This document shows, piece after piece, positions 1,683-25,861 of a stretch of DNA of 32,000 nt. The DNA is from Candidatus Saccharimonadota bacterium (GTDB lineage: Archaea > Micrarchaeota > Micrarchaeia > Micrarchaeales > Micrarchaeaceae): NCBI GenBank assembly GCA_963705375.1, contig OY970071.1:1140001-1172000 (forward strand). Reading direction: 5' to 3'. Below the pieces are notes generated by a model that was not told the origin of the DNA, made no database searches, and was given only the letters and a program-made list of their open reading frames with translations. Each line of letters starts with the position of its first letter. The first letter of the stretch is position 1. The position numbers and the translations under genes are program-made.

Positions 1683-2843
1683 TCATTGAAACTCTGAAGC
1701 GATCTTATCTAGGCCCGCTTTTATTTCCTCTTCAGGAACAGTCAAGGATATCCTGAAGAACTCCCTGTAATCGCCGAATGCGGTGCCTGGCGTTATTGCG
1801 ACTCCCTTGTCCAGCAACCTGAATGCCAATTTCTCAGAGTCTGTGTTGCACTTAGGAAAGAAGTAGAACGGAGCATCAGGCTTAGAGAACTCTAATCCAG
1901 CTTTGGATAGTATTGACGTTGCCAGCTCGGCACGCCTCGCATATATGTCGCGCATACGTCCGGAAATCTCTTTTTTGAGCTCTAGGGCTCTTATCGCTGC
2001 TTCTTGGATGAAAGACGGCACGCTGGTTATGGTCATCTGGTTCAGCTTCGAGATGCGCTCTATCAGGCCGCTGTCTGCTATCACATAGCCTATGCGCCAC
2101 CCGGTCATTGCGAATGTCTTCGAGAAGCTGTGCACCAGTATCTGGTCCCTGTCTATGTCCATTATGCTTTTTTGTTTCTTGAAGTTTATGTCCGAATACG
2201 TTTCATCCGAAAGTATCCTCACTTTTTTCTCTCTAGCGATTGCTGCTATCTCTTCCAGCGTTTTAGACTCGATGATTTTGCTTGTCGGATTGTTAGGGCT
2301 ATTAAGAATTATCACTCGCGTATCGTTGTCTATCATATTTTTAAGCGCGTCGGCGTCTATGCGCCAGTCTTTCTCAAACGATGTTTTTAGAATCTTGACC
2401 TGCATGCCCAGCTCATTCGCGGCAAGCCCATAGCTCGTCCAGTATGGAGATGCAACTACGACGTTGCCTCCGCGCTTGGCTAGACCTTGCATAGCCGCAA
2501 AAATGGCCCACTTCGAACCGGGCGTCACCATTACGTTTTCAATTTCGGTTCCGTATTCCTCTGCAAGCTTCTTTCTCAGGGATGTTAGACCAAATGCCGA
2601 TCCATACTTCCCAGCGCCTGACTTCATCGAACTTATTGCAGCCTCGATTATCCTATCGTCTGTCTTCTGATCCGGGTCTCCCACATTGAATTTTATTATT
2701 TTTTTACCTTCGCTCTCAAGCTTGTGGACTTTTTCACTTATCTCATACAGCATACATGCACCTATCTTCTCTAGTGAGTTCTCTAAAAGAACGCTTATAA
2801 GCGTGTTGCGTCTATCCTTTGCTTTTGGCACTCTCTTCAGCAC
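1683..2843 (-). CDS. class I/II PLP-dependent aminotransferase (aspartate/aromatic type)
   Basis: Signature segments are present: NVGDPD, NSPNNPT, and SFSKTFAMTGWRIGY (PLP-lysine motif SxSK). Length is 386 aa. The 5' end overlaps the stop of the upstream pheA/tyrA fusion by 32 nt. An alternative start at M31 (2753) is possible. Confidence 0.9.
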   Translation of the reverse strand: MLKRVPKAKDRRNTLISVLLENSLEKIGACMLYEISEKVHKLESEGKKIIKFNVGDPDQKTDDRIIEAAISSMKSGAGKYGSAFGLTSLRKKLAEEYGTEIENVMVTPGSKWAIFAAMQGLAKRGGNVVVASPYWTSYGLAANELGMQVKILKTSFEKDWRIDADALKNMIDNDTRVIILNSPNNPTSKIIESKTLEEIAAIAREKKVRILSDETYSDINFKKQKSIMDIDRDQILVHSFSKTFAMTGWRIGYVIADSGLIERISKLNQMTITSVPSFIQEAAIRALELKKEISGRMRDIYARRAELATSILSKAGLEFSKPDAPFYFFPKCNTDSEKLAFRLLDKGVAITPGTAFGDYREFFRISLTVPEEEIKAGLDKIASEFQ

Positions 2844-4494
2844 GAATCGCGTCGCTGAGCCTTTTCATCTCTTCTGCGAATGCCGTCTCATCGTGTTTTT
2901 TCACCAGCTCGTAAAGCCTCTTTGCATTCTCTATGAACTTTCCTTCTGCATCAAGTACTCGCGGAAGGATCATTTGCAGGTTTGCATAGAATACGGGGTC
3001 GCTCTCGGATATGTTCTCTACCAGGCCGAGGAGGCGCTTGAAGCTTGATGGCATTGATTTTCTGAGCTCTCTGAAATCGAAGTCCATCCACGTTTCTCCT
3101 ATCGCTATGCCCACGAAGTGCGAGAGCGCAAGTGCAATCGACATCGTGTTGTCGTGTTTTGACGGGCTCATGATTTCGACGTGGAATCCCCTGTTTTCCA
3201 GCCATGCCTTGAACTCAATCGCAGTTTTCTCCTCTTTCTGGCTCGCGGGCGTCAGTATGAAATTCTGGTTGTTGCTGTCTGCCTTTGGTCCGAAGAGAGG
3301 ATGCGTTCCAAGCACTGTCGCTTCCTTGAGATACTTCTGCATTATCCTGACAGGTTCGCCCTTTGTGGATGTCATGTCCATCACTATCTGGTCGCTTCGT
3401 ATGAATGGCGAAATCTCCTTCACTACCGCTTCGAAATCATTAAACAGCACAGAAACAAAAACGATATCAGACTGCTTTACTGCTTCGACATTGCTGCCTG
3501 CAACCTTGACTTTCAGCTCCTTTCCAAGCTGCACGACTTTGCTTTGCGTCCTTCCGCTTGCGACCACATCAAAGCCCTCATTGACAAAGAACCTGCAGAA
3601 CCATCTGCCCATGCCTCCTGCAGCTCCTATCACTGCGATACGTTTCTTTCCGAAAAGTCCGACCTTCTTTTCGTTGGAAAAGGTGCTGCCTGCTTTTGGA
3701 TACGAACCTATCACCTTGATGGAATCTGTCTCTTCGCTAAGCTTCAATAGCGCCTTCTTGATGTTTGGGTCTTCCGAATCGCCTTCAATGTCGATATAGA
3801 AGCGGTACTCCCACGGCTTTCCTATGATCGGCCTTGATTCGAGCTTTGTCAGGTTTATGCCGTTTGCAGAGAACGCCTTGAGCGCGTTGTACAACGATCC
3901 AGGTTCGTTCTTCACAGTGAATGTGGCAGAGGTCTTGTCTTTCTTCGCGCTTGGTTTAGACCAGGATATTATGAAGAACCTGGTGAAGTTGTTGCTGTCT
4001 GTTTCTATGTTCTTCCTGATTATCTTCATGTCGTAGATTTTTGCGGCTAATGAGCTTGCTATCCCCGCAGCGTCCGTTGCCCCACTGTCCTTTACAAACT
4101 TGATGCTTCCTGCCGTATCGTAAACAGGAATCTCCTCCAGCCCTCTTTCCTCGATGAACTTCCTGCATTGTCCCAGCGCCTGTGGGTGTGAATATACCTT
4201 TCTAATGGCCTTCAATTCGACGCCCGGGTTGGCTATAAGGCAGTGCTCAACTCTCAAGATCACTTCTGCGTAAACTCCGATTTCTGACTTGGTGAGCAGG
4301 TCATAGTTCTGGCCAATACTGCCTTCCAGCGAGTTCTCTATCGGCACTATGCCAAACTCTGCAAGGCCTTTTGCCACTCTGTCAAAAACATCAGGGAAAG
4401 TTTTGCATGGCAGCGTTTCCGCTTTGTCTCCAAAGTACTGCAGTGCAGCCAGTTCGCTGTACGCTCCATGCTCTCCTTGAAATGCGACTTTCAT
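2812..4494 (-). CDS. pheA: bifunctional prephenate dehydratase (with ACT domain) / prephenate dehydrogenase fusion
   Basis: The N-terminal half shows MKVAFQGEHGAYSE, TRFF and LTKLESRP, which are PDT plus ACT hallmarks. The C-terminal half shows IAVIGAAGGMGRWF (Rossmann GxGxxG) and HPLFGP, which are TyrA hallmarks. Confidence 0.9.
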   Translation of the reverse strand: MKVAFQGEHGAYSELAALQYFGDKAETLPCKTFPDVFDRVAKGLAEFGIVPIENSLEGSIGQNYDLLTKSEIGVYAEVILRVEHCLIANPGVELKAIRKVYSHPQALGQCRKFIEERGLEEIPVYDTAGSIKFVKDSGATDAAGIASSLAAKIYDMKIIRKNIETDSNNFTRFFIISWSKPSAKKDKTSATFTVKNEPGSLYNALKAFSANGINLTKLESRPIIGKPWEYRFYIDIEGDSEDPNIKKALLKLSEETDSIKVIGSYPKAGSTFSNEKKVGLFGKKRIAVIGAAGGMGRWFCRFFVNEGFDVVASGRTQSKVVQLGKELKVKVAGSNVEAVKQSDIVFVSVLFNDFEAVVKEISPFIRSDQIVMDMTSTKGEPVRIMQKYLKEATVLGTHPLFGPKADSNNQNFILTPASQKEEKTAIEFKAWLENRGFHVEIMSPSKHDNTMSIALALSHFVGIAIGETWMDFDFRELRKSMPSSFKRLLGLVENISESDPVFYANLQMILPRVLDAEGKFIENAKRLYELVKKHDETAFAEEMKRLSDAIRAEESAKSKG

Positions 4495-4627
4495 AATCTC
4501 TCTGAGTTATTTTATGGACTGCCGTCTTTGAATACCTTTGCCTACCGTTATCTATGCATTCGGCCGATAAAAAATTTGTCATTCACGAATTATGGTATGG
4601 CATTATAAGTGTTGCCTTATATGTTTA

Positions 4628-4740
4628 AGCAGCGGACGGCTGGGTTCGGATCCAGTCAATGTCAGGGGAAAGTGGTGAAATTCCACTGCTGTGCCGCAAC
4701 TGTAATCCCATCTTGATGGGTAAGCCAGGCTGCCTGAGTC
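4628..4740 (+). promoter_or_regulatory. candidate cobalamin (B12) riboswitch aptamer
   Basis: The + strand reads aggggaaagtGGTGAAATTCCactgctgtGCCGCAACTGTAAtcccatcttgatgggtaAGCCAGGCTGCC. This contains GGGAA, GGTGAAATTCC, GCCGCAACTGTAA and a shortened B12-box-like AGCCAGG..CTGCC. There is a cccat/atggg hairpin, and gcagc (4630-4634) is complementary to gctgc (4729-4733), a possible P1. The element sits directly 5' of a B12-binding-domain ORF. Confidence 0.7.
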
Positions 4741-4747
4741 CAATGCA

Positions 4748-6712
4748 ATGTCCACGAGCATGGTATGGATGAACGTATCTAAAACTGCTGATTCTTGCTT
4801 GAAAACAGCATACACATCTTCCACTAAAACAGATGTCGACCAAGTCGGAACTCGTTTGGAGTGTGCATGCTGCATGGGAACGGCAAGGGCCGATTCCAGT
4901 TTTGTGCGTTACATATCCGATTTCGTGAATCGCGATTCTTGGGCGATTATAAAAAAGAACATGCCAGATTCCTCCGATGCCGAAATGGCGGAAATAATAA
5001 ACCGTATAAAAACGCTCGACACTATTTTTGCTGGCAACCTGCTTGTAGCCCTTGATGCTACTTCCGATGCAGGTGTGCTTACGAGTGTGAAGTTCCTCAA
5101 CGCTGCAAGCACCTATAATCCGGATATAGGTGATGCTCTTCTGTATGCGATAAGAAGGACAAGCAATGTCGACGCGCTTACCGATTACAGGCTTTTTACA
5201 AGTAATGCAGCTAGCTTCTTCAACAAATCAGGTCCTGAAGCTGCAAGCGAGTGGTTCTATTCTATCGGTCTTACAAGAAACGTTGACGTGCTCACGAGCG
5301 ATCGCGTTTTGAGTGATGCTGTCTTGGCCGTGATAAACAAGGACGGCCGTCTTGCAAGCGAATACTCTCTTGCTGTCGGAGTTACCGGAGACCTGGACGC
5401 ACTTGCGAATACTGGCTTATTGAATTCTCTGAAAGGTCTGAAAGAGCCCCTGCGCGCTGAGGTTCTGTCCGGAGTGTGGTACACAAAAAGTGCAGGATGG
5501 ATAACTCCTGCAGTTGTGGGCAAAATAGGTACTGGAGAGTTGGACGTGTGGAGGGATTTTGCCCGGGCTCCTGCCAACATGGGGCTGCCTCGCGTTGTCT
5601 TCGTGGGCCTCAATGACGGCCATAATCGTGGTTCTAAACTCATCGCGCAGTCCATGCGCGATTCAGGTTTTGATGTTATCTATCTGGATGACGCCTCGTC
5701 CGAAGAAATCGTCCGCATAGCCAAGAAGGAAAGTGTCAGCGCTATAGGCTTCAGCCTGATGGCCGATTCGTACCGTCACACCATGGATGAGGTATTGAGG
5801 CAACTCGGTGCACAATGCGAAAGTGCAGTGACTGTGTTTTGTGGGGGTACTGTCTCACAGCGTACGTCTGATTGGCTGCAACAAGTCGGCGTGCACCTGT
5901 TTGAGAGGGGTACATCCGAGAATGCGCTCATAGGCTTCCTGAAAGGTTCCACGCAGTTGCACCACCCTCCGTTGCCATATGTGCCTGATAATATTGGCCA
6001 GCGTGCTGTTTCGTCCGGCCACCAAACACCATTCAACGCTTATCTGCGCTCAGAGAACGTATTCGGAGCACCGTTTGCATTGTCCGACATTGATGATGAA
6101 CAGAAGAAGACTGAAAAAACGATTGCGCGTGTTGTCGCAATTGATAGGGCGTCTGTGCAAAATGCGCATAAAAATGCTTACAAAGACGCCATGGTCATAG
6201 GTAGTAATGCGATATCTCTGGATATTGTAGTCGCCAGAATGCCAAACTCCCAGGCGATGGTGGTGAAAGCCATGCCAGCTTCTTTGTTTAATGAAGAGTC
6301 CATACTGGCAGCTGCCGCTGCCAATACTGGCGTACACCTCAAAACTGAAGTATACGGTGTCCACGAACAAACCAATATTGTGCATTATGCTGAAGTCAGG
6401 TCTTATACTGGGCCTGGCGCCGTACCGATCTCGATGCAAATGTGCGGTCATGATGCCGGCGCAACTCTGACCACGACGCCGCTCCTCGTGATTCCCTCCT
6501 CGTCGACGTTCAGACTATGTAACAGTCCTCGATATTTGGAACTCGTCAATGTATCTGCATCTGCCCTTCGTGGTGATACGGTATTCGCTGGTCGTACGTT
6601 ACCTGCAATATCTCCATTTATGCCTGCAGCAAAACAGCACCTTGCAAAGAGAAGCCTCAGGATGTCCGAACGCATCATACACATTATCCGAAGGTTCAAG
6701 AGGTTTTCTTGA
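4748..6712 (+). CDS. B12-binding-domain protein with a repeat-containing N-terminal region and an unknown C-terminal half
   Basis: The central segment RVVFVGLNDGHNRGSKLIAQSMRDSGFDVIYLDD...IGFSLMADSY...VFCGGTV matches the methylmalonyl-CoA-mutase-type cobalamin-binding Rossmann domain with the DxHxxG motif. The start is uncertain: 4748 is the longest ORF, and in-frame ATGs at 4874 and 4961 are alternatives. Confidence 0.75.
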   Translation: MSTSMVWMNVSKTADSCLKTAYTSSTKTDVDQVGTRLECACCMGTARADSSFVRYISDFVNRDSWAIIKKNMPDSSDAEMAEIINRIKTLDTIFAGNLLVALDATSDAGVLTSVKFLNAASTYNPDIGDALLYAIRRTSNVDALTDYRLFTSNAASFFNKSGPEAASEWFYSIGLTRNVDVLTSDRVLSDAVLAVINKDGRLASEYSLAVGVTGDLDALANTGLLNSLKGLKEPLRAEVLSGVWYTKSAGWITPAVVGKIGTGELDVWRDFARAPANMGLPRVVFVGLNDGHNRGSKLIAQSMRDSGFDVIYLDDASSEEIVRIAKKESVSAIGFSLMADSYRHTMDEVLRQLGAQCESAVTVFCGGTVSQRTSDWLQQVGVHLFERGTSENALIGFLKGSTQLHHPPLPYVPDNIGQRAVSSGHQTPFNAYLRSENVFGAPFALSDIDDEQKKTEKTIARVVAIDRASVQNAHKNAYKDAMVIGSNAISLDIVVARMPNSQAMVVKAMPASLFNEESILAAAAANTGVHLKTEVYGVHEQTNIVHYAEVRSYTGPGAVPISMQMCGHDAGATLTTTPLLVIPSSSTFRLCNSPRYLELVNVSASALRGDTVFAGRTLPAISPFMPAAKQHLAKRSLRMSERIIHIIRRFKRFS

Positions 6713-13234: not shown

Positions 13235-13307
13235 GCGATTGTAGTCTAGTCTGGTAGGACGTAGCCTTGCCAAGGCTATAACCCGGGTTCAAATCCCGGC
13301 AATCGCA
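13235..13307 (+). tRNA. tRNA-Gly (anticodon GCC)
   Basis: Hand-folded cloverleaf: acceptor gcgattg/caatcgc, D stem gtct/ggac, anticodon stem tagcc/ggcta with loop ttGCCaa, T arm ccggg-ttcaaat-cccgg, discriminator A. CCA is not encoded. A TATA-like cttatatttatta lies about 25-35 bp upstream. Confidence 0.92.
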
Positions 13308-13310
13308 CAT

Positions 13311-13431
13311 GGCGGGGTAGCTCAGCCTGGTTAGAGCGCTAGACTCATATGCAAAAGCACTATGAGTGATGAGCCTTCGGCGATGATGCTAAGAAATCTA
13401 GAGGTCGCGTGTTCAAATCTCGCCCCCGTCA
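13311..13431 (+). tRNA. intron-containing tRNA with CAU anticodon (elongator Met, or Ile2 if modified); intron 13350-13395
   Basis: Fold: acceptor ggcgggg/ccccgtc (one G-U pair), D arm gctc/gagc, anticodon stem ctaga/tctag, loop ctCATa. A 46-nt insertion sits after position 37. The T arm is gcgtg-ttcaaat-ctcgc with one mismatch. G1-C72 argues against an initiator. It starts 3 nt after tRNA-Gly. Confidence 0.88.
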
Positions 13432-13563: not shown

Positions 13564-13929
13564 TCATCGGCCCTTGTAACCTAATATTCTATCGTACTTT
13601 TTATGATCGACTAAGTAGAGCACAATCGCAACCACCTCAATCTCATTTCCTTTCAAGGTGTATAGCATACGCCAGAAATGAGTTAACTCCAGCCTGAATA
13701 GGTTGTTCACGTCTAATATTTTAGGTATCAGGCGTTTTGGTATGTTGTCACCGAGCATAGCATTCTGTTTTAGCAGCTCTATCCTCTGTAGTATGGATCT
13801 CAATAGTTGCATTTCTTCTGAATTACTTACACCTTTGGACCGTTGAATCCCAACGATTCTGTTAAGTCCTTCGAACTCTTCTTTGGCTTGCTCTATTAGC
13901 ACCACTCTTACGGGTCTTGCATCGTTCAT
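13564..13929 (-). CDS. RelE/ParE-like toxin candidate with an N-terminal extension (121 aa)
   Basis: The C-terminal LFRLELTHFWRMLYTLKGNEIEVVAIVLYLVDHKKY resembles the RelE/ParE core pattern (..R.R.G.yRviY......i.il.i.hR..vY). It has a 4-nt ATGA overlap with the upstream small wHTH gene. Confidence 0.55.
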   Translation of the reverse strand: MNDARPVRVVLIEQAKEEFEGLNRIVGIQRSKGVSNSEEMQLLRSILQRIELLKQNAMLGDNIPKRLIPKILDVNNLFRLELTHFWRMLYTLKGNEIEVVAIVLYLVDHKKYDRILGYKGR

Positions 13930-14201
13930 ACCTCCAACCCATGTTCTATAATCTTTTCAAGTTCTTCATGAGGTTTGTATATCCAGAGCACTCCCTTAGT
14001 TGTTATGAGTATCTTGCCGCTCTGTTGTAAGTAGTCCAGTATCTGCAGCAGCGTACTGTGCATAATCTTCTTAGGTAGCCTACGCTTTAGCTCGGATATC
14101 TTTATTACCTCTCCTGCTTTCCGTAGAGTATCTTCGACCATGAGCACTGTAGCAAGCCGGGGGGAATGCATAACCTCTACTTGGACTGTTTGAAGCTTCA
14201 T
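13926..14201 (-). CDS. winged-helix DNA-binding protein, putative antitoxin/regulator (91 aa)
   Basis: ISELKRRLPKKIMHSTLLQILDYLQQSGKILITTKGVLWI has a wHTH pattern. It is translationally coupled to the RelE-like ORF, and a strong A/T-rich promoter region (atatatatactaataagatatataaatatat) lies upstream. Confidence 0.55.
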   Translation of the reverse strand: MKLQTVQVEVMHSPRLATVLMVEDTLRKAGEVIKISELKRRLPKKIMHSTLLQILDYLQQSGKILITTKGVLWIYKPHEELEKIIEHGLEV

Positions 14202-14328
14202 AATAATATATATACTAATAAGATATATAAATATATCTTTTAAGTATCAATCGCATCGCATACAACAGAGCCAGTTGATTAAGCCTTTGTATTTTTAGAA
14301 TAGTTAGCCATCTTTCCATAACAAAAAA

Positions 14329-14373
14329 GGATCGTTCAGCAACTGCAACGTAGTATACTCTGCCACCCCGTCA
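14329..14373 (+). repeat. diverged copy of the att-like repeat ending ...ctgccaccccgtca
   Basis: It shares ggatc, agtat, ctgcc and the terminal ccccgtca, in the same order, with the 58-bp repeats at 15238 and 16214. I estimate roughly 60-65 percent identity with gaps, by eye. Confidence 0.4.
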
Positions 14374-14512
14374 CACATACATCATGTTCAAATACAGAAC
14401 CATAAGCCACAGATACGAGTTACTTAGCTACCTCTTATGCTTGGTCCTCTAGATAACCTATCCGCCAGTTCGCAGAATCACTCCATGCAAACCTGGGCAG
14501 AAGACAAAGAGG

Positions 14513-15085
14513 TCATTCTTCTGTTCTTAATGCTTCAGCAATTTTAGGTGCGGCCATTTTGAAGTCAATTGGAACCCCAACCACCACAGGGGCAACATCC
14601 AGAGGTTCGTTGAACTTCGCATCGAGGTTGAAACGACCTCCAAAATGGGTATTGAGGTCCGCAAGTACCTCCAGCGACAGCGGATTATTTCCTGGAGAAG
14701 CAAAAACTGTCTTTTCAATGCCGCCATCCCCTTCTACCTGCTTGCCATTTTCGAAAGTAATATAAAGTTCTAACTCAGGATTATAAGCAAAAACTATATT
14801 TTTCTCGCCCTTGTCTTTGACGAGCTTGCCTTCATTATCAAAAATATGATATCCTTCTTCCTTAAGACCTTTTCCGGCTAGCCAGAACCATTTTTCCTTC
14901 AATTGCCCCATTAGCCCAGGGTTTCTGTCTATGAGTACAAGTGCTTCCTGATAAGTCATGGCTCTTAGGTGCTTTTGCTGCAAAAGAGCCATAGAATCTG
15001 TGTAATTTGCCTCTGTCTCGGATATGAATACTTCTGTATTGCTTACTTTCTTAAACTGCACTTCAGTCCTTTGTCTAGCAGACAT
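14513..15085 (-). CDS. hypothetical protein (190 aa)
   Basis: It is a long ORF with balanced composition, and the overlapping ORFs are short. I recognise no motif. Confidence 0.6.
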   Translation of the reverse strand: MSARQRTEVQFKKVSNTEVFISETEANYTDSMALLQQKHLRAMTYQEALVLIDRNPGLMGQLKEKWFWLAGKGLKEEGYHIFDNEGKLVKDKGEKNIVFAYNPELELYITFENGKQVEGDGGIEKTVFASPGNNPLSLEVLADLNTHFGGRFNLDAKFNEPLDVAPVVVGVPIDFKMAAPKIAEALRTEE

Positions 15086-15237
15086 TTTAACACATTGTCG
15101 TCTCTATTTATTCAAATACTTATGCTTTCTTTTTGTGTTGTTTGCGAAAGTTTGTTGGAGTGTAAGTAAACTTTCTCTCCTTTCGCCCAGCACTTTTAGA
15201 AGTTGCAAAGTTGCAAGCATGAAGAAATTACCAATCA

Positions 15238-15295
15238 ATAACGAATCAGTAGCCCTTCCGCCAACACAATTCAAGTATGACTGCCGCCCCCGTCA
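15238..15295 (+). repeat. 58-bp att-like direct repeat, copy A (ends cgcccccgtca, identical to the tRNA-Met 3' end)
   Basis: ataacgaatcagtagcccttccgccaacacaattcaagtatgactgccgcccccgtca matches copy B at 55/58. The last 11 nt are identical to tRNA-Met 13421-13431. Confidence 0.8.
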
Positions 15296-15371
15296 GACCT
15301 TCAAACAACGTTAGACAGTAGTATCTTTGCGCAATAGTTAAAAATCCCGAATATCTATTGACTATGATACT

Positions 15372-16154
15372 ATGTGGTCTGCCGAAAGGCTCTGTATTAA
15401 TGCGGAACAGTGGTATGCCCTATTTCTTGAGGCACGCTCAGAAGACGGAGTAAAAGAAGCGGAGTTCATCAAAATTCAAATCAGAAAGCATATGAAAACC
15501 GCTAAGCGAGTGCTTGATGTACCGTGCGGTACGGGCAGAGTGTCTATCCCACTGGCCAAAATGGGTTTTGATGTTACAGGAATCGATATTTCAAAGAACT
15601 ATATCGCTATCGCAAACAAAAAGGCAAAAATGAACAACGTAGGAAAACGAGTAAAATTCATCCAAGGGAACATGAGAAATGTCGAAGAAATTTGCAGTCC
15701 CCTCGAAAGATTCGATGCGTGTGCAAACGTATTTACAAGCATAGGATACGGGACTAAAGAAGAAGACATCACATTCTTTAAATCACTCAGAAAAATAACG
15801 AAAAGAGGAGGTTTGTTCTTTATTCTGGCAACTCAGAATAAAAATGCATTAACTCCACAAAAACCTTACGAAGGCTTGGAGCGGGTCGGAAACATTGTGC
15901 TCATAGATGCGGCACATTTCGATAAAAAGACCTCACATCGCACATCTAATTGGCGATTTTACAAAGATAACGGCAAAACATTGAAACTACTCTATGCGCA
16001 AAAATTTGACGTTCTGCTTTATTCCGCTCAGGAAGTTGGAACTATGCTGGAAAAATCTGGCTGGAAAGTGATAAGTGTATTTAATGCCGATAAAAAGAGG
16101 CTGCCATTAACTAAATTTGACCGTAGATTTAACATAGTGGCAAAAGCAGTATAG
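15372..16154 (+). CDS. class I SAM-dependent methyltransferase
   Basis: VLDVPCGTGRVSIPLAKMGFDVTGIDIS covers motif I plus the acidic post-I residue. Downstream motifs FDACANVFTSIGY and GGLFFI are present. Confidence 0.85.
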   Translation: MWSAERLCINAEQWYALFLEARSEDGVKEAEFIKIQIRKHMKTAKRVLDVPCGTGRVSIPLAKMGFDVTGIDISKNYIAIANKKAKMNNVGKRVKFIQGNMRNVEEICSPLERFDACANVFTSIGYGTKEEDITFFKSLRKITKRGGLFFILATQNKNALTPQKPYEGLERVGNIVLIDAAHFDKKTSHRTSNWRFYKDNGKTLKLLYAQKFDVLLYSAQEVGTMLEKSGWKVISVFNADKKRLPLTKFDRRFNIVAKAV

Positions 16155-16213
16155 AGTATAGGTATGCTTAGTTATCACTGTACTGAAATTCAATCATTAA
16201 GAAATAACAAATG

Positions 16214-16271
16214 ATAACGGATCAGTGGCCCTTTCGCCAACACAATTCAAGTATGACTGCCGCCCCCGTCA
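16214..16271 (+). repeat. 58-bp att-like direct repeat, copy B
   Basis: ataacggatcagtggccctttcgccaacacaattcaagtatgactgccgcccccgtca matches copy A at 55/58. Confidence 0.8.
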
Positions 16272-16335
16272 TTACTAGACTTCTGTCGCCGAGAGACATT
16301 CCAGCAAGAAAAGGTTTGTCGTCGGAAAAAGTGTC

Positions 16336-17088
16336 GTGTTCAAACCACCACCCAAAACCTATGTAATACTGTTGATAAACTTGGTAAAAATTCTGGACTT
16401 AAATATCTGGAACTACGAAGATTTCGCAGAGCGGAAGCCAAAAATAATTAAGCTTATAAAAAAACAGAATCCAGACCTTGTAACCCTACAAGAAGTAAGG
16501 GATGATAGAAAATTTAACAAAAAGGGAAAAGATTAGGCAGAGCAATTAAACGAAAAATTACATTATCCTTATTGCATATTTTACCCTATTCAGAACCTAC
16601 AAAAGATATCGAGAACACCAGAAAAATATAAATTGGGGGCTTTTGAGGGATTGGCAGTATTGTCAAAATATCCTATTATAAAAGTAATAAAAAGAAGATT
16701 AAAAAGGCAGAAGGCGGATAGACATCCGCGTGGAATATTGCATTTAAAGATAAAAGTCAATAAGATATTCGACATAATAATTGTGCATTTCTCGAACAAT
16801 AATATATTTAGCTTGCCTCAACTGCGTGAAACGTTAGATTATGTAAAAAAGAGACAAATTGAACCGATAATTATTGGTGATTTCAATATATTAGAACCAC
16901 AACAAGTATCTAGATTAGCAAAAAGCAAGTACAAAAGTTCCTATACCCATAAACGATACATTTCCTATCCGAGCAAAAAAGAAGTTTTGGATTATATACT
17001 GATTTCTAAAAATCTCAAATTTGAATCTTTTAAGTGTCTAAAAGAAAATGTTTCAGATCACAAAGCATTAATCGCATCTATAATATAA
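16336..17088 (+). pseudogene. endonuclease/exonuclease/phosphatase (EEP) family gene interrupted by one in-frame TAG
   Basis: ORFs 16336..16536 and 16633..17088 are in the same frame and separated only by TAG at 16534-16536. The read-through translation is continuous and EEP-like: KILDLNIWNY...PDLVTLQEV...GKD*AEQLNEKL...FEGLAVLSKYPI...IIGDFN...VSDHKAL. The likely original start is TTG 16381. The segment is visibly more AT-rich than its flanks. Confidence 0.8.
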
Positions 17089-17110
17089 ATGTAAATCTTG
17101 TCGTGAAGAC

Positions 17111-17128
17111 CAAATCTCTCCCCCGTCA
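17111..17128 (+). repeat. 18-bp copy of the tRNA-Met 3' end (putative distal att site)
   Basis: caaatctctcccccgtca matches tRNA-Met 13414-13431 caaatctcgcccccgtca at 17/18. Confidence 0.7.
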
Positions 17129-17362
17129 AAATCGGACTACAAGTAAAACACGTTCAGCTCATCCACGCAAAGAAGCAGATACGATCCTAAGTGCAGTTCC
17201 AGCATTGCTTACATAGACAAGGCAAAGTTCTTGCGGCGATATCGCGCTGCGTCTATCCTTGGGCACGCGCCTTGCCGGCAGGCTTGAGCCACTACTACTT
17301 TAAACAGCATAAAACCAAGACCTGTCGTACAAAAGCTGACCAACAATGCTGCGGCTGCCGAA

Positions 17363-18172
17363 ATGCCTGATGTTATGAAGAAGCTTGAAGAGCTTATGCA
17401 GAACCGTACCGACTTACAAGGCCTAGAAGCCAATGGCTTCGAGGAAGTCGAGTATTTGCTAGCGGATGGTTATGTCCGCCAGATGACGGGGAAAAGTGCG
17501 CGAGATACGAGCAAGGCCAAAGCAGCAGAGAGTTTCTTCAAACCTAAGAAAAAAGACCTTATTGCACTGGCAGACCTTCTCGCAGAAAACGACTGCTATT
17601 CTGTCTTGGATGTCGGGTGCGGTTCGGGCAGGTTCCTTTTATCCTTGTGCGAGCACATAACGCACCAAGTAAGATCTAAATTCAGCAGGCTGGTGCAATT
17701 CAAAGGCATAGACACCGGGTTCTGGGACTGCCCATTACCTACAAGCTGCTTTCCGAACTGCAAATTCGAGTTAAACGGCGTAGAAGCGATGGCCATGGCC
17801 GCAGACATGCCTAAAACAAAGGCAGTTGATGATGGCGGTAAGTGGAAAAAGGGCAGAAAAGCGATGCATGATAAGACGTTTGATGCAGTCTTTTGCATCT
17901 GGATGCCCCAAAATTCAGACTGGAGAGAGTATCTCTGCAAGCTGTCTAACAAGCTCGTCATACTGGTCCTCTCGCAAGATTTCAACACCGGAACAGTTGA
18001 TACATATTCGGGCTGCAAAGAGTTTGGTTTAGAGCTAATAAAGTCGTGGGACAGCAAAGGAAGCACAATACAAGTTCATAAACGGAAGGTTAGGCGTAGT
18101 GAACGGGTTCTCAGTGCTCGCAAGGAAAAATATAGGATACTATCTATCCAATCACATGCTGTGATCGAATGA
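17363..18172 (+). CDS. putative SAM-dependent methyltransferase-fold protein (269 aa)
   Basis: YSVLDVGCGSGRFLLSL is a SAM motif I. The remainder is not recognisable. It has a 4-nt overlap with the downstream membrane gene. Confidence 0.65.
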   Translation: MPDVMKKLEELMQNRTDLQGLEANGFEEVEYLLADGYVRQMTGKSARDTSKAKAAESFFKPKKKDLIALADLLAENDCYSVLDVGCGSGRFLLSLCEHITHQVRSKFSRLVQFKGIDTGFWDCPLPTSCFPNCKFELNGVEAMAMAADMPKTKAVDDGGKWKKGRKAMHDKTFDAVFCIWMPQNSDWREYLCKLSNKLVILVLSQDFNTGTVDTYSGCKEFGLELIKSWDSKGSTIQVHKRKVRRSERVLSARKEKYRILSIQSHAVIE

Positions 18173-18948: not shown

Positions 18949-19749
18949 ATGGCGAAAAAATCAACGAAAACAAAAGCCGATACAAAACCGCTGTATCTGC
19001 CGATCGCAATAGTTTCACTAGCCCTTGCACTTGTATTTCTTGGATTTGTAATACTATGCGCCCTGCCGCAACACCTCTCTTATGTAACCGTATCTGCTAG
19101 CGGAACGGCCTCCGCAACAGCAAAGGAGGCTTTAATGTACATCGCACTAAATGGTACAGGAAATACGACCGCTTCAGCAGCCGCCAACCTGAGCCTGACT
19201 CTGCAAGAGTTTAATACCACTATACTGCCTTTAATCAATAGAAATCTTACATTAATCCAGACTACCTATTATGGCATCAATAAACCTTATCAAACAGGGT
19301 GCTACTTCCTACCCGTAGGGGCCGGAACCGCAATCCCAAACTATTGTATCAACTCTAATGTTACAGGATTTAACGGATATGTCGCAACTGAAGATATACT
19401 GGTAACCTTACCAAACAGCAATAACGTAAGTGCGGCAATAACTGCTTTGTCTAGAATACCCTGCCTAACATTCCAGAGCATTCAAGCAACGCTCTCTGAT
19501 GCGGAAACCGCAATGCTTAATCAGCAAGCGCTATCTCTTGCTATAGCAAATGCAACTGCGCAGGCAAGAACTCTGACTGGCAATGACACGCAGCTTAAAA
19601 TCGAAAATATTACGGTACAGAATCAGTATATCTATCCGTATCCATATGCTGTCAGTGGCGCTTCAACTAGTACAAACGGCAGCTCCGCATTCTATCCTGG
19701 CCAGATAAAGATATCAAAAAGCGTCACTGTCGTATTTTCCAAGAACTGA
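18949..19749 (+). CDS. membrane-anchored secreted protein, SIMPL/DUF541-like, rich in N-glycosylation sequons
   Basis: It has a basic N-terminus plus one TM (LYLPIAIVSLALALVFLGFVILCAL). The A/T/S/N-rich ectodomain has an ALSLAIANATAQARTLTG-type helix as in SIMPL proteins. I count 11 N-x-S/T sequons. Confidence 0.55.
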   Translation: MAKKSTKTKADTKPLYLPIAIVSLALALVFLGFVILCALPQHLSYVTVSASGTASATAKEALMYIALNGTGNTTASAAANLSLTLQEFNTTILPLINRNLTLIQTTYYGINKPYQTGCYFLPVGAGTAIPNYCINSNVTGFNGYVATEDILVTLPNSNNVSAAITALSRIPCLTFQSIQATLSDAETAMLNQQALSLAIANATAQARTLTGNDTQLKIENITVQNQYIYPYPYAVSGASTSTNGSSAFYPGQIKISKSVTVVFSKN

Positions 19750-20043
19750 GTAACCGGACATATAACCTGGCTTGAAGCGTCTCAGTTCTTACGTCTTAGA
19801 ACCTTATGAGGCATGCCCTTACTATGCGCCCTAAGAGGTGGCCCGTATTTTTTGTAAATGAGGTATCATGGGCTTCTAAGTTTCATTTTTGACTCTGGAG
19901 GGCTATGTGTAAATAACTAGAAACAAGGGCAAGGTTATATGCCAACAATTAGGATGGCGAGACAAAAGACAGCAAGCACACCAGAATATTATCCCTTTCT
20001 CTAAAGGCTGCGCACTTACAAAATCTGCTTCAACAATTGAAGT

Positions 20044-20400
20044 TCACATGATCAAGAGCTTCAGGCCCTCTACTTCTTCAAAGTCTTTATCCCGCGTCAC
20101 TAGCAGCTCGTCGTGAGCTATTGCTATGGCTGCTATAAGGATGTCAAGCTCGTTTATCATACGCCCTTTCTTTTTCAACTCCTTGAATATTTTTGCAGAC
20201 CTTCCGGCAGAAACGCTGTCAAAAGCGTACACATTCATGATGTCCAAACTCCCAAGCGCTTCGTTACTTTTTGGAGCTTTTAAAAGTTCATACTCTGTTA
20301 TCGTCGTAGTTGCGATTTGCTCTCCTATTATCTCCAATTTCTCTTGTACGGCTGTGTTGTTGCCTAGCACTTCTATCAGAATACTAGTGTCCAATATCAT
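20044..20400 (-). CDS. vapC: PIN-domain ribonuclease toxin (VapC-like)
   Basis: MILDTSILIE is an N-terminal acidic PIN motif. ...ELDILIAAIAIAHDELLVTRDKDFE carries the C-terminal PIN acidic residues. It has a 4-nt overlap with the upstream antitoxin. Confidence 0.85.
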   Translation of the reverse strand: MILDTSILIEVLGNNTAVQEKLEIIGEQIATTTITEYELLKAPKSNEALGSLDIMNVYAFDSVSAGRSAKIFKELKKKGRMINELDILIAAIAIAHDELLVTRDKDFEEVEGLKLLIM

Positions 20401-20627
20401 GCAAAATACCTGTGTTTGCTGCTTTTTCTGGCTGCCGTTATCTCCTTCGAGAAGGCTTTGGCATCCTCCTTGCTCCAGACTCCCATAAATTTCCTGAGCT
20501 CCTTAACGTCTCCTTTGGTGCCTGCTCGCACTATGAGCTCCTTTATCTCCTCAGAGAACGACTTGTTCTTCTTCATCCGCTTCAGCGTCGAATAGACCTC
20601 ATTGGTAAGGGAAACTATTTTTGTCAT
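20397..20627 (-). CDS. vapB: VapB-like antitoxin (76 aa from ATG 20627)
   Basis: MTKIVSLTNEVYSTLKRMKKNKSFSEEIKELI resembles the archaeal small antitoxin pattern paired with PIN toxins. An atatata-rich promoter lies immediately upstream. The longer track ORF (to 20699) adds an implausible N-terminus. Confidence 0.7.
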   Translation of the reverse strand: MTKIVSLTNEVYSTLKRMKKNKSFSEEIKELIVRAGTKGDVKELRKFMGVWSKEDAKAFSKEITAARKSSKHRYFA

Positions 20628-20785
20628 GATATATGTATATGTATGCATATATAAAAGGCTTATTGGTATACCTAAATCGTCTAACATGAACCAGCACACG
20701 TTCTATTTCTATATTGATATGCCATGTATGAAAATGTTTAAATAACTATACATTCATATACTTAAGTACAAGTATAGGTAGTTGA

Positions 20786-21157
20786 ATGGATAGCCCAATC
20801 TTCGAAGCGCATCGGTTGCTGACGCTTGCAAGGTACATAACGGTGCCTCTCTTTATTCTTATGTTGTTCTCAAAGAGCACATATGCGGCGTCGCAGCTTG
20901 TTACGGAACTTGACAACATAAAGCTTATACTCGTCCAGGTGGGGCCTGCGCTCAGCGCGGTGCTGTTCGTGCTTGCTGGCATCTTCTATGCGATAGGCCA
21001 GATGCTGCCCCCTGATAAGAAGGCCAACTTCCACACGGCCGCGATAAACATAATAATAGGTGCAATCGTGGTCGGCGCTTTGAGTGTTGCGTCTACCTCG
21101 CTGGCCATCGCATCCACCCAGCTTTTGAGCAACTTCACAGTTACGAACTCTGTCTGA
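20786..21157 (+). CDS. VirB2/TrbC-like (CedA1/TedC-like) pilin candidate: signal peptide plus two hydrophobic helices
   Basis: The 123-aa protein has an N-terminal signal-like segment ending KSTYA-AS. Helix 1 is LILVQVGPALSAVLFVLAGIFYAIG, followed by a short polar loop QMLPPDKKANFH and helix 2 AINIIIGAIVVGALSVASTSLAIA. It is the first gene of the ATPase-containing cluster. The function is inferred from topology and context only. Confidence 0.55.
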   Translation: MDSPIFEAHRLLTLARYITVPLFILMLFSKSTYAASQLVTELDNIKLILVQVGPALSAVLFVLAGIFYAIGQMLPPDKKANFHTAAINIIIGAIVVGALSVASTSLAIASTQLLSNFTVTNSV

Positions 21158-21158
21158 G

Positions 21159-22196
21159 GTGAATGTGGTGCTTGCAGATATCGGCGCTTACAATATTGCG
21201 ATAGACCTTGTCGCAATAATGCTTGCCATATCTGGCATCGTCTTGGGCATCGGCTTTGCCGCAGACGACAAGAGGTTGAAAGAGTTCGGAAGGTCCGAGC
21301 TGCAGCAGGCTTTGATAAACGGTGCAATTGTGGGAATGCTGATCTCTGGATTTAGCAGCAATGGACTGATTGCTTTGCTCATCAACAACATTACTTCTAG
21401 TATGCAACTGACGGCAACATGCCAAAGCTTCATGAGTAGCAATTATGCTCTGTGCTTTGCGTACAACTACCTTGTTGGGACCAGTCCGGTGAGCATAAAT
21501 GGCATCGCATATCTTCCGCTTATAGAAACCGCTTTCGGCACACTTGCGGGTACCGTCTCGGTATATGTGGGTCTTGGTCTCATAGGTGCGGTTAAGCTCG
21601 GCAGCGGGCTTGTCGGCGTAAGCCTTGCAGGCATGATGGATCCTATATTGAATCAGCTTGGATATGTGATCGGGGCTCTCGGAGCATCGATAATAAGCAT
21701 CGAGGCCCAGGGAATTCTGCTCAAATTCATCTCTCTTACCGCGGTGCAGATACTGCTTCCTGTAGGAATAATACTTCGCATCACGTACATCACAAGAAGG
21801 ATAGGTGGCGCAATCATGGCTATCGCAATCGGACTATTTGCCGTGCTGCCACTGACATACGTATTAAACGCCGAGCTTGTCGCTGGCTATGCCGGAGCTC
21901 TCAATGATACTGCGGTAAGCACATTTGAACTCAATACGAGCAGGATCGCAAACGGAATGATGGGCAGCACGGCGAATCTCAATACGACCAATGGTGCAAG
22001 CATCTCTTCCATTTTCAGCGGTGCGATGGCTTCGCTTGAGAACATAGCCAAACAACTGCTGAACATCATTGCACAGATAGTCATACAGGTGTTCTTTCTG
22101 CCCGTGTTCGGGCTGATACTCACCGCAATCTCGATAAGGGAACTTGCGAGGGTTCTGGGCTCTGAGGTGAGCTTCGGAAGGTTCTACATGCTGTGA
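21159..22196 (+). CDS. polytopic membrane protein (about 7-8 TM), VirB6/TrbL/CedA-like by position and topology
   Basis: The 345-aa protein has many G/A/I/L-rich helices and a polar N/T/S-rich loop (residues around 235-285). It starts 1 nt after the pilin-like gene. I see no diagnostic motif. Confidence 0.5.
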   Translation: MNVVLADIGAYNIAIDLVAIMLAISGIVLGIGFAADDKRLKEFGRSELQQALINGAIVGMLISGFSSNGLIALLINNITSSMQLTATCQSFMSSNYALCFAYNYLVGTSPVSINGIAYLPLIETAFGTLAGTVSVYVGLGLIGAVKLGSGLVGVSLAGMMDPILNQLGYVIGALGASIISIEAQGILLKFISLTAVQILLPVGIILRITYITRRIGGAIMAIAIGLFAVLPLTYVLNAELVAGYAGALNDTAVSTFELNTSRIANGMMGSTANLNTTNGASISSIFSGAMASLENIAKQLLNIIAQIVIQVFFLPVFGLILTAISIRELARVLGSEVSFGRFYML

Positions 22197-22200
22197 TCAT

Positions 22201-22932
22201 ATGGAGGACTGGACGTTCGTAACGCTGCTTGTGCTCGAAGTAATGGTCACAATCGCAAGCATTGCTACGCTGAATAGGCTGCTCATAGCGGCAAGCCTGA
22301 CTGCAATACTTGCAACAGCGCTGCTTTACAGGCTCTGGTATGTCATAGAAGCGATCATGTTCAAGCACACGCACTTAGTGGAGCTGTTCAACGGGTACGA
22401 GCTGAGCGGTGCAAGAGAAACGGCGGTACGTAAGCGCAACGGCGCATTCAGTGCGACAGCGGCAGCCTTGCTCACCACAAACGCAAAGCGCGGCATGGAA
22501 CTTGAGCGGCTTGAGAGCATCATACAGCAGACTAGAGCACCTTTCAAGTTCGTGCTTCAAGCAGAACGGCTGAGTGCAAAGAGGCTTCTCGATGCAATGC
22601 AGACCAAGGTGAGCATGAAGCGCCTGGAGATGTCAAAGCTCAGCACTTCCTCTGAGAAGAAGCACATCGCGAAGCTCGATGCTCTGAAAAGGGAGATAAC
22701 GGAACTTGAGAAAGAGATAGAAACCGTAAGTGCGAGCGCACCTATGAGGCTCCGTCATTACATAATGACAAGTGCGCTTTCGGAAAACAAATTCACAGCA
22801 TCGGAGCTAGCGCTTTCGCAGCTAAATGAGCTTTCAAGCAAGTTGGGTGCCTTTCTTGGTGCAGAACCCGCGCTTCTTTCAGGTACTGAACTCATCACAG
22901 TCTTAGAACTCGACTCGACGCTGGTAGAATGA
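22201..22932 (+). CDS. membrane-anchored coiled-coil protein (2 N-terminal TM), possible VirB3 / VirB4 N-terminal-domain equivalent
   Basis: The N-terminus FVTLLVLEVMVTIASIATL...AASLTAILATALLYRLWYVI forms two TMs. A K/E/L-rich coiled coil follows (KLDALKREITELEKEIE). It has a 4-nt ATGA overlap with the downstream VirB4-like ATPase. Confidence 0.55.
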   Translation: MEDWTFVTLLVLEVMVTIASIATLNRLLIAASLTAILATALLYRLWYVIEAIMFKHTHLVELFNGYELSGARETAVRKRNGAFSATAAALLTTNAKRGMELERLESIIQQTRAPFKFVLQAERLSAKRLLDAMQTKVSMKRLEMSKLSTSSEKKHIAKLDALKREITELEKEIETVSASAPMRLRHYIMTSALSENKFTASELALSQLNELSSKLGAFLGAEPALLSGTELITVLELDSTLVE

Positions 22933-24026
22933 AAACCGGAATCAATTCCAATGCAAAGTATGCAAGCACGATGATGTGCATGGATGGCATGTCGGAACCT
23001 TCGCTAGAAGATGATTCTGGGGTCTATCTGGGCAAGACGCGCGTGTATCATACGCCGTTCTTCTTGGATACAAGCAAGCTATTGAATCCACATATCGCGG
23101 TGCTCGGCATGTCTGGTGCCGGCAAGACGTATTTCCTTAAGAGCCTTATAGCAAGGAATGCGCTGTGCTGCAACACTAAAGTTCTGGTGCTCGACTGGAA
23201 CGGAGAGTACAGCAATTTGATATCATTTCTTGGAGGGACCGTGTTTGATTCGGCAGTTGTGCCTCCATCTTTCGGTACCATCTCTTCAAGGCAGATTGCC
23301 AGCATAGATCTGTCAGTGCAGAAGAACGATACCGAAAGGAAACTCACTGCGGCACAGCTCCTTGACATGTTGATCGACGGGATGCATAGCCTGCGATTAG
23401 AGAAAGATCTCGGCCGCATAGTGGTGCTCGATGAGGCATGGCGTTTCATCGAGAGTGCAGGCGATATCGGTGCACTGTTTAGGGAGGGCAGAAAGTACGG
23501 AATAGGGATAGTCACCGCCACACAACTTACAAGCGACGTAAGCAAGGAGGTTCTCTCGAATGCCGCATGCACCGTACTCTTCAGATTGCAGAACAGCACA
23601 GATTACTCATTTCTACTAGATGCTGAGATAATCGACGAATTCGAGAAGCAGCGCATTTTGCAACTGAACCAAGGTGCGTGCATGCTTTCCATGGCTATGA
23701 AAGAAAAAAGTGGCCATGTGCGATTTTTCATAGAGCGCATAGACGGCGTTGACACCAAGCTTTACGGTATACGATGTGATGCGATGTATTTGAGAATAGC
23801 AGGATATGAGTTCCAGAAGATCACCGAAAGGCATTTTGCTGGTTCAGACGTACGACAGAAGATAGAGAGCTATATGGGCATCAATGACCGGGAGCTTGAA
23901 GCGACTGCCTTTGTAAAGTTCCTGTTAAAGATCGGATTGCACAGACAAGAGATAGTGCCTTATCTCAGAGCGCTGCGCATAAGCGACGCCATGATCGCAG
24001 AGGTGTACGAGCGTGCAGGACAATAG
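22929..24026 (+). CDS. VirB4/TrbE/CedB-type ATPase domain (FtsK-HerA superfamily)
   Basis: Walker A is GMSGAGKT (nt 23106-23129). Walker B is IVVLDEAWRF, the DEAW form typical of VirB4. GRKYGIGIVTATQ is the RK...TQ motif. At 365 aa it is only about the C-terminal half of a canonical VirB4. Confidence 0.8.
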   Translation: MKTGINSNAKYASTMMCMDGMSEPSLEDDSGVYLGKTRVYHTPFFLDTSKLLNPHIAVLGMSGAGKTYFLKSLIARNALCCNTKVLVLDWNGEYSNLISFLGGTVFDSAVVPPSFGTISSRQIASIDLSVQKNDTERKLTAAQLLDMLIDGMHSLRLEKDLGRIVVLDEAWRFIESAGDIGALFREGRKYGIGIVTATQLTSDVSKEVLSNAACTVLFRLQNSTDYSFLLDAEIIDEFEKQRILQLNQGACMLSMAMKEKSGHVRFFIERIDGVDTKLYGIRCDAMYLRIAGYEFQKITERHFAGSDVRQKIESYMGINDRELEATAFVKFLLKIGLHRQEIVPYLRALRISDAMIAEVYERAGQ

Positions 24027-25639: not shown

Positions 25640-25818
25640 TCGAAAGATACTTTGCCAGAATAGGGCTTGCAATATGCCTTGCCATATTGAACATAGGTTC
25701 GCTTCTCATGCTGTTTGGAAATAGCCGCGAGGATTCCGGAATGCGCAAGGTCGGAACAGATGCCGTTGTGGGTGCGCTGCTCCTGGCTTTCATTTCTTTT
25801 ATTGTGTACTTTTGGTGA
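25633..25818 (+). CDS. small 2-TM protein (61 aa) from GTG overlapping the upstream stop
   Basis: VLIERYFARIGLAICLAILNIGSLLMLFG...DAVVGALLLAFISFIVYFW forms two hydrophobic helices. GTG 25633 overlaps TGA 25637-25639 of the preceding gene. The part of track ORF 25447..25818 upstream of this is R/H/C-rich and implausible. Confidence 0.45.
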   Translation: MLIERYFARIGLAICLAILNIGSLLMLFGNSREDSGMRKVGTDAVVGALLLAFISFIVYFW

Positions 25819-25861
25819 TTGCACGTTCAAAAACATAAAGAGCTTCTATCGTAGTGCCAAC

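Follow-up and report, generated by a model that had tools for sequence, protein, structure and literature searches.

The window analysed here is a 32-kb stretch of contig OY970071.1, and its host is a tiny symbiotic archaeon (Micrarchaeota, DPANN). At positions 4633-4763 of the + strand lies an aptamer of the cobalamin (vitamin B12) riboswitch family, upstream of a gene for a B12-binding protein. We judge, with a probability of roughly 0.7, that this element is a functional riboswitch, carried by an archaeal mRNA in its 5' leader and acting as a B12-dependent translational OFF switch by way of a kissing loop between its loops L5 and L13. An earlier note, made from the letters of this DNA, had read the site as a cobalamin-riboswitch-like element; apart from its proposed P1 helix and its boundaries, that reading is supported.

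The whole window was scanned on both strands against the covariance models of Rfam 15, with the curated gathering scores as the threshold. Three matches rose above their gathering scores: two tRNAs and RF00174, the Cobalamin riboswitch aptamer, which fell on the + strand as the earlier note had anticipated, with an E-value of 2.2e-7 and coverage of the full model. The strings that had first drawn attention to the site are present on this strand in the order given for them: GGGGAA at 4665-4670, GGTGAAATTCC at 4674-4684, GCCGCAACTGTAA at 4693-4705, the hairpin cccat-cttg-atggg at 4707-4720 and AGCCAGGCTGCC at 4723-4734. The core strings GGGGAA, GGUGAAAUUCC, GCCGCAACUGUAA and UAAGCCAGGCUGCCUG match the RF00174 consensus and are invariant in an alignment of six orthologous loci (alignment A2); the conserved core, with its B12 box and T-loop-like L4, is present. 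The element is thereby confirmed as a genuine aptamer of the RF00174 family, with chance excluded by a wide margin. Its anatomy, derived from alignments and helix-by-helix extraction, is as follows in window coordinates.

4603-4608, + strand: archaeal TATA box TTATAA, invariant in the six orthologous loci of A2
4620-4754, + strand: match to the RF00174 aptamer, model positions 1-189, 41.6 bits (gathering score 31.5)
4633-4637, + strand: P1 5' strand CGGAC, pairing with 4738-4742
4639-4656, + strand: P2 arm, with GCUGG 4639-4643, loop GUUCGGAU 4644-4651 and CCAGU 4652-4656
4665-4735, + strand: four-way-junction core, from the alignment to the Rfam consensus
4665-4667 with 4733-4735, + strand: P3, GGG with CCU, from the Rfam alignment
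4671-4687, + strand: P4/L4, from the Rfam alignment; P4 covaries (two pairs)
4690-4691 with 4697-4698, + strand: P5, UG with CA, enclosing L5 UGCCG 4692-4696
4700-4702 with 4726-4728, + strand: proximal P6, CUG with CAG, from the Rfam alignment
4707-4711 with 4716-4720, + strand: short distal P6 hairpin, CCCAU with AUGGG; its variable pairs covary
4722-4735, + strand: B12 box, from the Rfam alignment
4738-4742, + strand: P1 3' strand GUCCA, pairing with 4633-4637
4743-4751, + strand: J1/13, a single-stranded linker of 9 nucleotides (nt), AUGCAAUGU, whose length and sequence vary among relatives
4752-4763, + strand: P13/L13 regulatory hairpin, with CCA 4752-4754, loop CGAGCA 4755-4760 and UGG 4761-4763
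4769-6712, + strand: regulated gene, 647 amino acids (aa), with a central mutase-type B12-binding domain; AUG 4769 is its most likely start
5609-5929, + strand: B12-binding domain, residues 288-394 of a 654-aa reading of the gene, Pfam PF02310, 4.5e-15

The full unit runs from the TATA box at 4603 to the end of the P13 hairpin at 4763 and on to the start codon at 4769, so that the boundaries drawn earlier, 4628-4740, were too short. The earlier P1, gcagc 4629-4633 with gctgc 4730-4734, was also wrong: gctgc sits in the B12 box and the P3 3' strand, and the pairing is not kept in relatives. Two further pairings were rejected. A second copy of GUCC at 4750-4753, considered as an alternative partner for the P1 5' strand, showed apparent co-variation in one relative (L011) and none in another (L015), and the P13 hairpin was preferred; an extended hairpin taken from the minimum-free-energy fold, GUCCA 4738-4742 with UGGAU 4766-4770, is not conserved in L001 or L008.

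Contigs and loci with relatives of the downstream protein or of the aptamer are referred to as L001-L017. The protein family is very small, with 8 clusters among 5.8 billion proteins, one of which is the identical protein encoded on a 1.2-Mb contig. On the contigs of the relatives the gene order is kept, namely the B12-domain protein, a GCD14-type tRNA methyltransferase and topoisomerase IA (TopA); on L001 the synteny extends to ribosomal protein S3Ae, and FBPase_3 is found on L001 and L002. Directly upstream of the orthologue, RF00174 matches above the gathering score (37-46 bits) were obtained in L001, L002/L003, L006, L008 and L009. A DNA pattern from the 3' half of the aptamer, scanned over Joint Genome Institute (JGI) metagenome contigs, yielded seven further loci at 32-49 bits, all above the RF00174 gathering score; the relatives overall score 32.4-48.9 bits. 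No aptamer was found in L005 or L007, both of which are cut at the contig end, and the viral contigs gave no match to the aptamer pattern.

The genes that follow the aptamer differ among these loci. L017, L014 and L016 again encode a homologue of the B12-domain protein downstream; in L011 the aptamer precedes a DUF6580 gene (an ECF-S-like membrane protein) and in L015 a gene for a PduO-type cobalamin adenosyltransferase (Cob_adeno_trans). Two bacterial-looking loci, L012 and L013, have TTGACA-type promoters in place of the TATA box, intrinsic terminators after the aptamer and P13, and DUF4430 and DUF6580 genes; L012 also carries an apparent MurB C-terminal fragment, identified by eye. The occurrence of the same aptamer type before DUF6580, PduO-type adenosyltransferase and DUF4430 genes suggests a coherent B12 regulon.

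Two variations in the arrangement of the relatives were observed. In L014 (about 6370-6450 in RNA orientation) and L016 (about 885-970), both of them GC-richer and archaeal, the riboswitch is followed by a conserved upstream open reading frame (uORF) of 25-26 codons, METHRLFIGMNPARAAERISGSEVRG and MKTICLIIGKDPARTAAPIRGIRGA, and then by the B12-domain gene. Because the stop codon of the uORF either overlaps the start codon of the main gene or sits immediately beside it, and L014 has a strong GGAGGTG-type Shine-Dalgarno sequence for that start, this arrangement suggests translational coupling. In L015 (2671-3368 in RNA orientation), an aptamer with an identical P13 lies between the genes for a class II (B12-dependent) ribonucleotide reductase and the PduO-type adenosyltransferase, with an NrdR-like open reading frame (ORF), recognised by eye from its translation, on the opposite strand. 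Since no TATA-like box was found upstream of the L015 aptamer, it may act inside an operon.

Covariation was counted on an unfitted MAFFT alignment of 13 sequences, with 500 shuffles and with 3' partners slid by 1-3 columns as controls. Standard pairs filled 98.0% of cells, compared to 26-42% with the slid partners, and double-sided changes were present in 17 of the 36 pairs; none of the 500 shuffles attained any of the five measures. Compensatory changes, which the earlier note had looked to in homologous upstream regions, were found in P1, P2, P4, distal P6 and P13. In P1 all five pairs show double-sided changes among the 13 relatives, e.g., GCAGAU/AUCUGC in L011, UUAGAUU/AAUCUGA in L015 and CGAAG/CUUCG in L013. 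P2 is paired in 100% of cells, with double-sided changes in three of five pairs, and its loop has a consensus, G-Y-U-C-R-G-A, common to archaeal and bacterial relatives. P13 has double-sided changes in two of its three pairs: CCA-CGAGCA-UGG is kept in the archaeal-type loci (with UCA in L011) and is replaced by CCU-CGAGCA-AGG in L013 and CCUU-CGAGCA-AAGG in L012. The J1/13 linker that precedes it measures about 6-10 nt across the archaeal-type loci. Thus, P1 and the four-way junction P3-P6 are supported by pair conservation and covariation, more weakly so within the archaeal-type set alone.

With respect to class, as defined in PMC7367189, the RNA is not of the Cbl-I (cobalamin class I) type, because the large P7-P11 extension on P6 is missing and distal P6 is a 5-bp hairpin (4707-4720); in the Rfam alignment, 5 nt of the window aptamer substitute for 58 model positions of the RF00174 P6 extension. 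Nor is it of the Cbl-IIa (env8) type, because an 18-nt P2 hairpin (4639-4656) stands where the J1/3 internal-loop T-loop would be. What was found is the hybrid layout described for yvrC (PMC7367189, Figure 1D), that is, a P2 loop-stem-loop arm together with a small P6 hairpin, and both stems covary. The element is a new member of a known cobalamin riboswitch family, in an unusual host.

The signals around the aptamer are those of an archaeal transcription unit. The distance from the end of TTATAA to P1 is 22-25 nt in nine of the ten archaeal-type loci, and no sigma-70-like site was found in 4450-5050. With the spacing typical of archaea, about 26 nt, transcription is predicted to start at about 4630-4633, at the P1 5' strand, which would put the TATA box at about -26. 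TATA-like boxes rich in A/T also stand 15-30 nt upstream of the start codons of many other window genes, which is the pattern that leaderless archaeal mRNAs would show. Elsewhere in the window, a tRNA with a CAU anticodon (13311-13431), missed by ARAGORN, contains a 48-nt intron in the anticodon loop, directly 3' of the anticodon. Relatives tell the same story: L014, from a 651-kb contig, encodes by eye an apparent aIF2-gamma, ribosomal protein S6e and a CDC48-type ATPase, and two relatives of the B12-domain protein turned up when species-representative genomes were scanned, both on metagenome-assembled genomes (MAGs) titled Candidatus Micrarchaeota. Because of the TTATAA box, the tRNA intron, the synteny with archaeal ribosomal genes, the S3Ae and FBPase_3 genes on the syntenic contigs, and these Candidatus Micrarchaeota relatives, the host is archaeal, as the earlier note had supposed of the contig.

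The aptamer lies in the 5' leader of a B12-related gene, and P13 stands beside the start codon. The mechanical ORF listing gives 4748-6712 (the 654-aa reading), with in-frame AUGs at 4748, 4760 and 4769. In the archaeal-type loci except L009, an AUG follows P13 by 4-7 nt and opens a conserved frame (MNVSKTA, MSIAKSA, MPISRSA or MPISKSA). The AUG at 4748 was rejected, being absent in L001, and that at 4760 either lies in another frame or runs straight into a stop codon in L002, L008, L009, L011 and L017; the latter AUG comprises the last nucleotide of L13 and the first two of the P13 3' strand, and is conserved as RNA. Because 4748 is missing in L001, 4760 is not usable in five relatives and the AUG after P13 is conserved, AUG 4769 is the most likely start codon. 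The public gene call P0001 (650 aa) begins at AUG 4760, within P13 and three codons before AUG 4769.

The protein was recognised earlier by its DxHxxG motif, and this identification holds: PF02310 is the only Pfam domain of the ORF, and the motif reads D290-x-H292-x-x-G295 at 5615-5632. TIGR00640 also matches the B12-binding domain (58.2, with the cutoff at 57.45). Among solved structures, the closest are small subunits or C-terminal domains of acyl-CoA mutases (4r3u_C, 3.5e-19; 2yxb, 2.5e-18), and Foldseek gave template-modelling (TM) scores of 0.77-0.82 to acyl-CoA mutase chains, recovering the B12-binding domain only. The AlphaFold2 model is poor (mean pLDDT 49.6), with residues 405-654 disordered, and is uninformative on the N-terminal helical repeats. 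These repeats occupy the N-terminal ~280 residues (4769-5600), with a recurring T-G-N-V-x-A-L-T-D motif; the C-terminal ~250 residues (5960-6712) are poorly conserved and predicted to be disordered, with a basic tail at the end. Neither region matches Pfam or NCBIfam. No mutase catalytic subunit was found near the gene. Since other copies of this aptamer type stand before genes of the uptake or salvage kind, a role of this orphan B12-binding protein in acquisition, storage or delivery of B12, and not in catalysis, is suggested.

A kissing loop between L5 and L13 is common to every cobalamin riboswitch class (PMC7367189), and in env8 it acts as the switch, closing off the ribosome-binding site in response to cobalamin (PMC5028336, PMC6158498). 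In the window RNA, L13 (CGAGCA) can pair with L5 (UGCCG) through UGC/GCA and CG/CG, giving five pairs with one L13 nucleotide unpaired. Most loci have A there, L002 has C, and no other position of the loop varies. By our own count, complementarity of this kind is expected in only about 20 of 4096 random 6-mers. L13 needs to be presented in a stem-loop, and the kissing helix always has at least one unpaired nucleotide (PMC5028336); the arrangement seen here conforms to both rules. The P2 loop GUUCGGAU was also considered, in place of L5, for kissing with downstream sequence, and was rejected: its changes in L001 and L006 are uncompensated, and the Rfam structure puts L5 at UGCCG.

From this architecture we infer that the RNA binds cobalamin and represses translation in the following way. 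The TATA promoter at 4603-4608 would start the transcript almost exactly at P1. Bound cobalamin would then stabilise the docking of L5 (4692-4696) on L13 (4755-4760), and the resulting kissing loop, held in a hairpin that ends 5 nt before AUG 4769, would bury the translation-initiation region. The orphan B12-binding protein would be produced only under B12 scarcity. Such OFF control would fit a protein for B12 capture, storage or hand-over in a presumably vitamin-scavenging organism.

Several points weigh against a functional translational switch of this kind. Ligand binding, regulation and the transcription start are all predicted from sequence. P3, P5 and proximal P6 are invariant, in part because the DNA search pattern fixed some of these columns, and hence uninformative, and the L5 and L13 pairs are likewise invariant across all 13 sequences, which leaves the kissing loop without covariation support. 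The ten archaeal-type sequences alone vary little (83% column identity), only four pairs show double-sided changes among them, and the shuffle control for this set is weak for some measures (14 of 500 for percent paired, 463 of 500 for pair types). Because variation within the archaeal-type set is low, much of the covariation is contributed by the two bacterial sequences together with L011 and L015. Folded by itself to minimum free energy, the window RNA is not stabler than shuffles (z = 0.2), though this fold recovers P2, P4 and P6. There is no clear Shine-Dalgarno sequence before AUG 4769, L009 lacks an AUG at the expected position after P13, and the more remote Micrarchaeota homologue L010 lacks an aptamer, even with matches admitted up to an E-value of 5.

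The alternative that survives best, and which we consider unlikely, accepts a real aptamer that acts mainly on transcription or mRNA stability, with loss of the transcript and not occlusion of the start codon as the main output. B12 would then block translation only indirectly, or would leave the leader, once untranslated, open to archaeal factors that terminate transcription or degrade the mRNA. There is precedent for such an output in that env8 and btuB combine translational repression with control of mRNA abundance (PMC5028336), and the intrinsic terminators that the two bacterial relatives bear after P13 indicate that the same aptamer can drive termination. In the window, however, no intrinsic terminator was found in 4450-5050, and no terminator-like hairpin or T-run lies between the aptamer and the ORF. 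The spacing from P13 to the start codon, constant at 4-7 nt in the archaeal-type loci except L009, is sensible for translational control.

A bacterial aptamer that was recently transferred, is conserved by descent only and now regulates nothing in archaea is less probable again, at under one chance in ten. The archaeal copies are alike (83% column identity) and close to the bacterial L012 and L013, which fits recent horizontal transfer, and covariation within the archaeal set alone is modest. However, the flanking proteins share no more than 35-47% identity, yet the aptamer core hardly varies, so the RNA is under much stronger constraint than the adjacent coding sequence. The differences that do occur in the archaeal set preserve pairing, with 97.7% of cells still paired. 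Descent alone is also at odds with the fixed spacing of the aptamer to an archaeal TATA box on one side and to the start codon on the other, and with its position, behind one and the same type of promoter, before at least two different genes related to B12 (that of the B12-domain protein and, in L011, DUF6580).

It is very improbable that the contig is bacterial or mis-binned, in which case the riboswitch would be ordinary. The riboswitch class is overwhelmingly bacterial and the archaeal assignment rests on features and relatives, but these features are difficult to reconcile with a bacterium: the 48-nt tRNA intron after the CAU anticodon falls short of the size of bacterial group I introns, the promoters are of the TATA-box type with no sigma-70 site, the synteny recurs on independent contigs (L001/L002) where S3Ae and FBPase_3 are also encoded, the apparent aIF2-gamma, S6e and CDC48-type ATPase accompany the homologue in L014, further relatives lie on Candidatus Micrarchaeota MAGs, and the identical protein is encoded on a 1.2-Mb contig. 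Finally, a chance covariance-model match or a minus-strand coding region, to which a 90-aa mechanical ORF spanning the whole riboswitch (4603-4875) and the unremarkable stability of the single-sequence fold might point, is already refuted by the E-value of 2e-7, by thirteen independent matches above the gathering score, by the compensatory changes, and by the gain or loss of 1-4 loop nucleotides in distal P6 and J1/13, which would disrupt any reading frame.

A translational cobalamin switch in the window leader may also be seen as part of something larger. We lean slightly towards a native and functional riboswitch regulon of bacterial origin in DPANN archaea (Micrarchaeota and relatives), which would have been rewired to archaeal TATA promoters, would control translation through the kissing loop and would have B12-scavenging genes as its targets, those for the large orphan B12-binding proteins among them. 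Here a bacterial RNA sensor would have been re-plugged into archaeal transcription signals, and DPANN symbionts appear to sense B12 and to regulate the proteins that capture or handle it, among them an unstudied family of ~650 aa built around a mutase-type B12-binding domain.

Other features of the window were observed alongside. Upstream of the riboswitch, the divergent ORF that the earlier note had taken for pheA/tyrA (2812-4494, - strand) encodes a fused prephenate dehydratase-ACT-prephenate dehydrogenase of 560 aa. A class I/II aminotransferase gene follows, with its start overlapping the stop of this ORF (1683-4494, - strand, for the pair), and this locus represents an aromatic amino-acid branch retained in a small DPANN-type genome. 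A tRNA-Gly(GCC) at 13235-13307 lies 3 nt from the CAU-anticodon tRNA, whose intron includes GTGATGA, resembling a box C motif, so that the intron might itself host a box C/D guide RNA. Downstream of this tRNA pair and of a ParE-like toxin ORF (13564-13929), a cluster at 18949-28380 resembles a conjugation or DNA-transfer module, and may be an integrated mobile element. The GC content falls to 0.40-0.41 at 14000-18000. The cluster includes the following.

20786-21157: type IV secretion system (T4SS) pilin-like protein, PF18895
22929-24026: HerA/DUF87-AAA_10 ATPase
26095-28380: 761-aa ATPase with weak CedB/CedD/VirB4 matches

The rarity in archaea that the earlier note gave for this class agrees with the survey of McCown et al. 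2017 (PMC5473149), in which the archaeal riboswitch classes are thiamine pyrophosphate (TPP), fluoride, flavin mononucleotide (FMN), Mg2+-I and guanidine-II, with cobalamin not among them. A generic statement that the cobalamin riboswitch is widespread "in bacteria and archaea" cites the same survey (PMC9600662). In a full-text literature search we found no report of a cobalamin riboswitch in DPANN, Micrarchaeota or other archaea; automated Rfam-based annotation may already flag such matches in public records. If the regulon reading is true, no cobalamin riboswitch would have been described from the archaeal domain before the window RNA. Archaea have few riboswitches, and a conserved cobalamin switch behind archaeal promoters would extend their list by a major cofactor class. 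It would also provide a clean system for how riboswitches talk to the archaeal translation machinery, in the form of a defined 140-nt RNA for probing translation-initiation control on a leadered archaeal mRNA.

Among known systems, an archaeal parallel is the fluoride (crcB) riboswitch of Thermococcus kodakarensis, also a bacterial-type class in an archaeon and presumably translational, as it is cited in PMC8241225. Fluoride is the only archaeal riboswitch tested experimentally (PMC8241225). That switch has another ligand and another fold, and is experimentally validated, whereas the window RNA is known from sequence analysis. With the RF00174 family at large (clan CL00101), the window RNA shares the P3-P6 junction, the GGUG..A..CC L4 loop, CCGCAACUGUAA, the B12 box AAGCCAG and the position in the 5' leader of a B12 gene; it differs in its archaeal host, its archaeal TATA promoter and the missing large P6 extension (58 model positions).

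In its regulatory platform the window RNA resembles the env8 hydroxocobalamin riboswitch (Cbl-IIa; PMC5028336, PMC6158498), since in both a short J1/13 linker leads to a small P13 beside the translation start. The linker is 9 nt in the window RNA and 7 nt in env8 (PMC5028336). In both, L13 can pair with L5 in a helix broken by unpaired nucleotides, two purines in env8 and a single nucleotide in the pairing proposed here. Unlike the window RNA, env8 has a J1/3 T-loop and no P2 arm, and its L13 holds a bacterial ribosome-binding site, whereas the window RNA is without a clear Shine-Dalgarno sequence. In its aptamer layout, the window RNA is closer to the atypical yvrC riboswitch of Bacillus subtilis (PMC7367189), with which it shares a Cbl-I-like P2 arm, placed after P1 and ahead of P3, and a Cbl-II-like P6 that bears only a small hairpin; the likeness is one of layout as described in that study. 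The platforms differ, in that yvrC has a P13-P14 and poly-U terminator region (PMC7367189), while P13 of the window RNA stands directly before the start codon with no terminator. The yvrC binding pocket is buttressed by its P2 arm, and adenosylcobalamin (AdoCbl), methylcobalamin (MeCbl) and hydroxocobalamin (HyCbl) are all ligands of that RNA (PMC7367189). By analogy, this suggests a similarly broad cobalamin selectivity for the window RNA.

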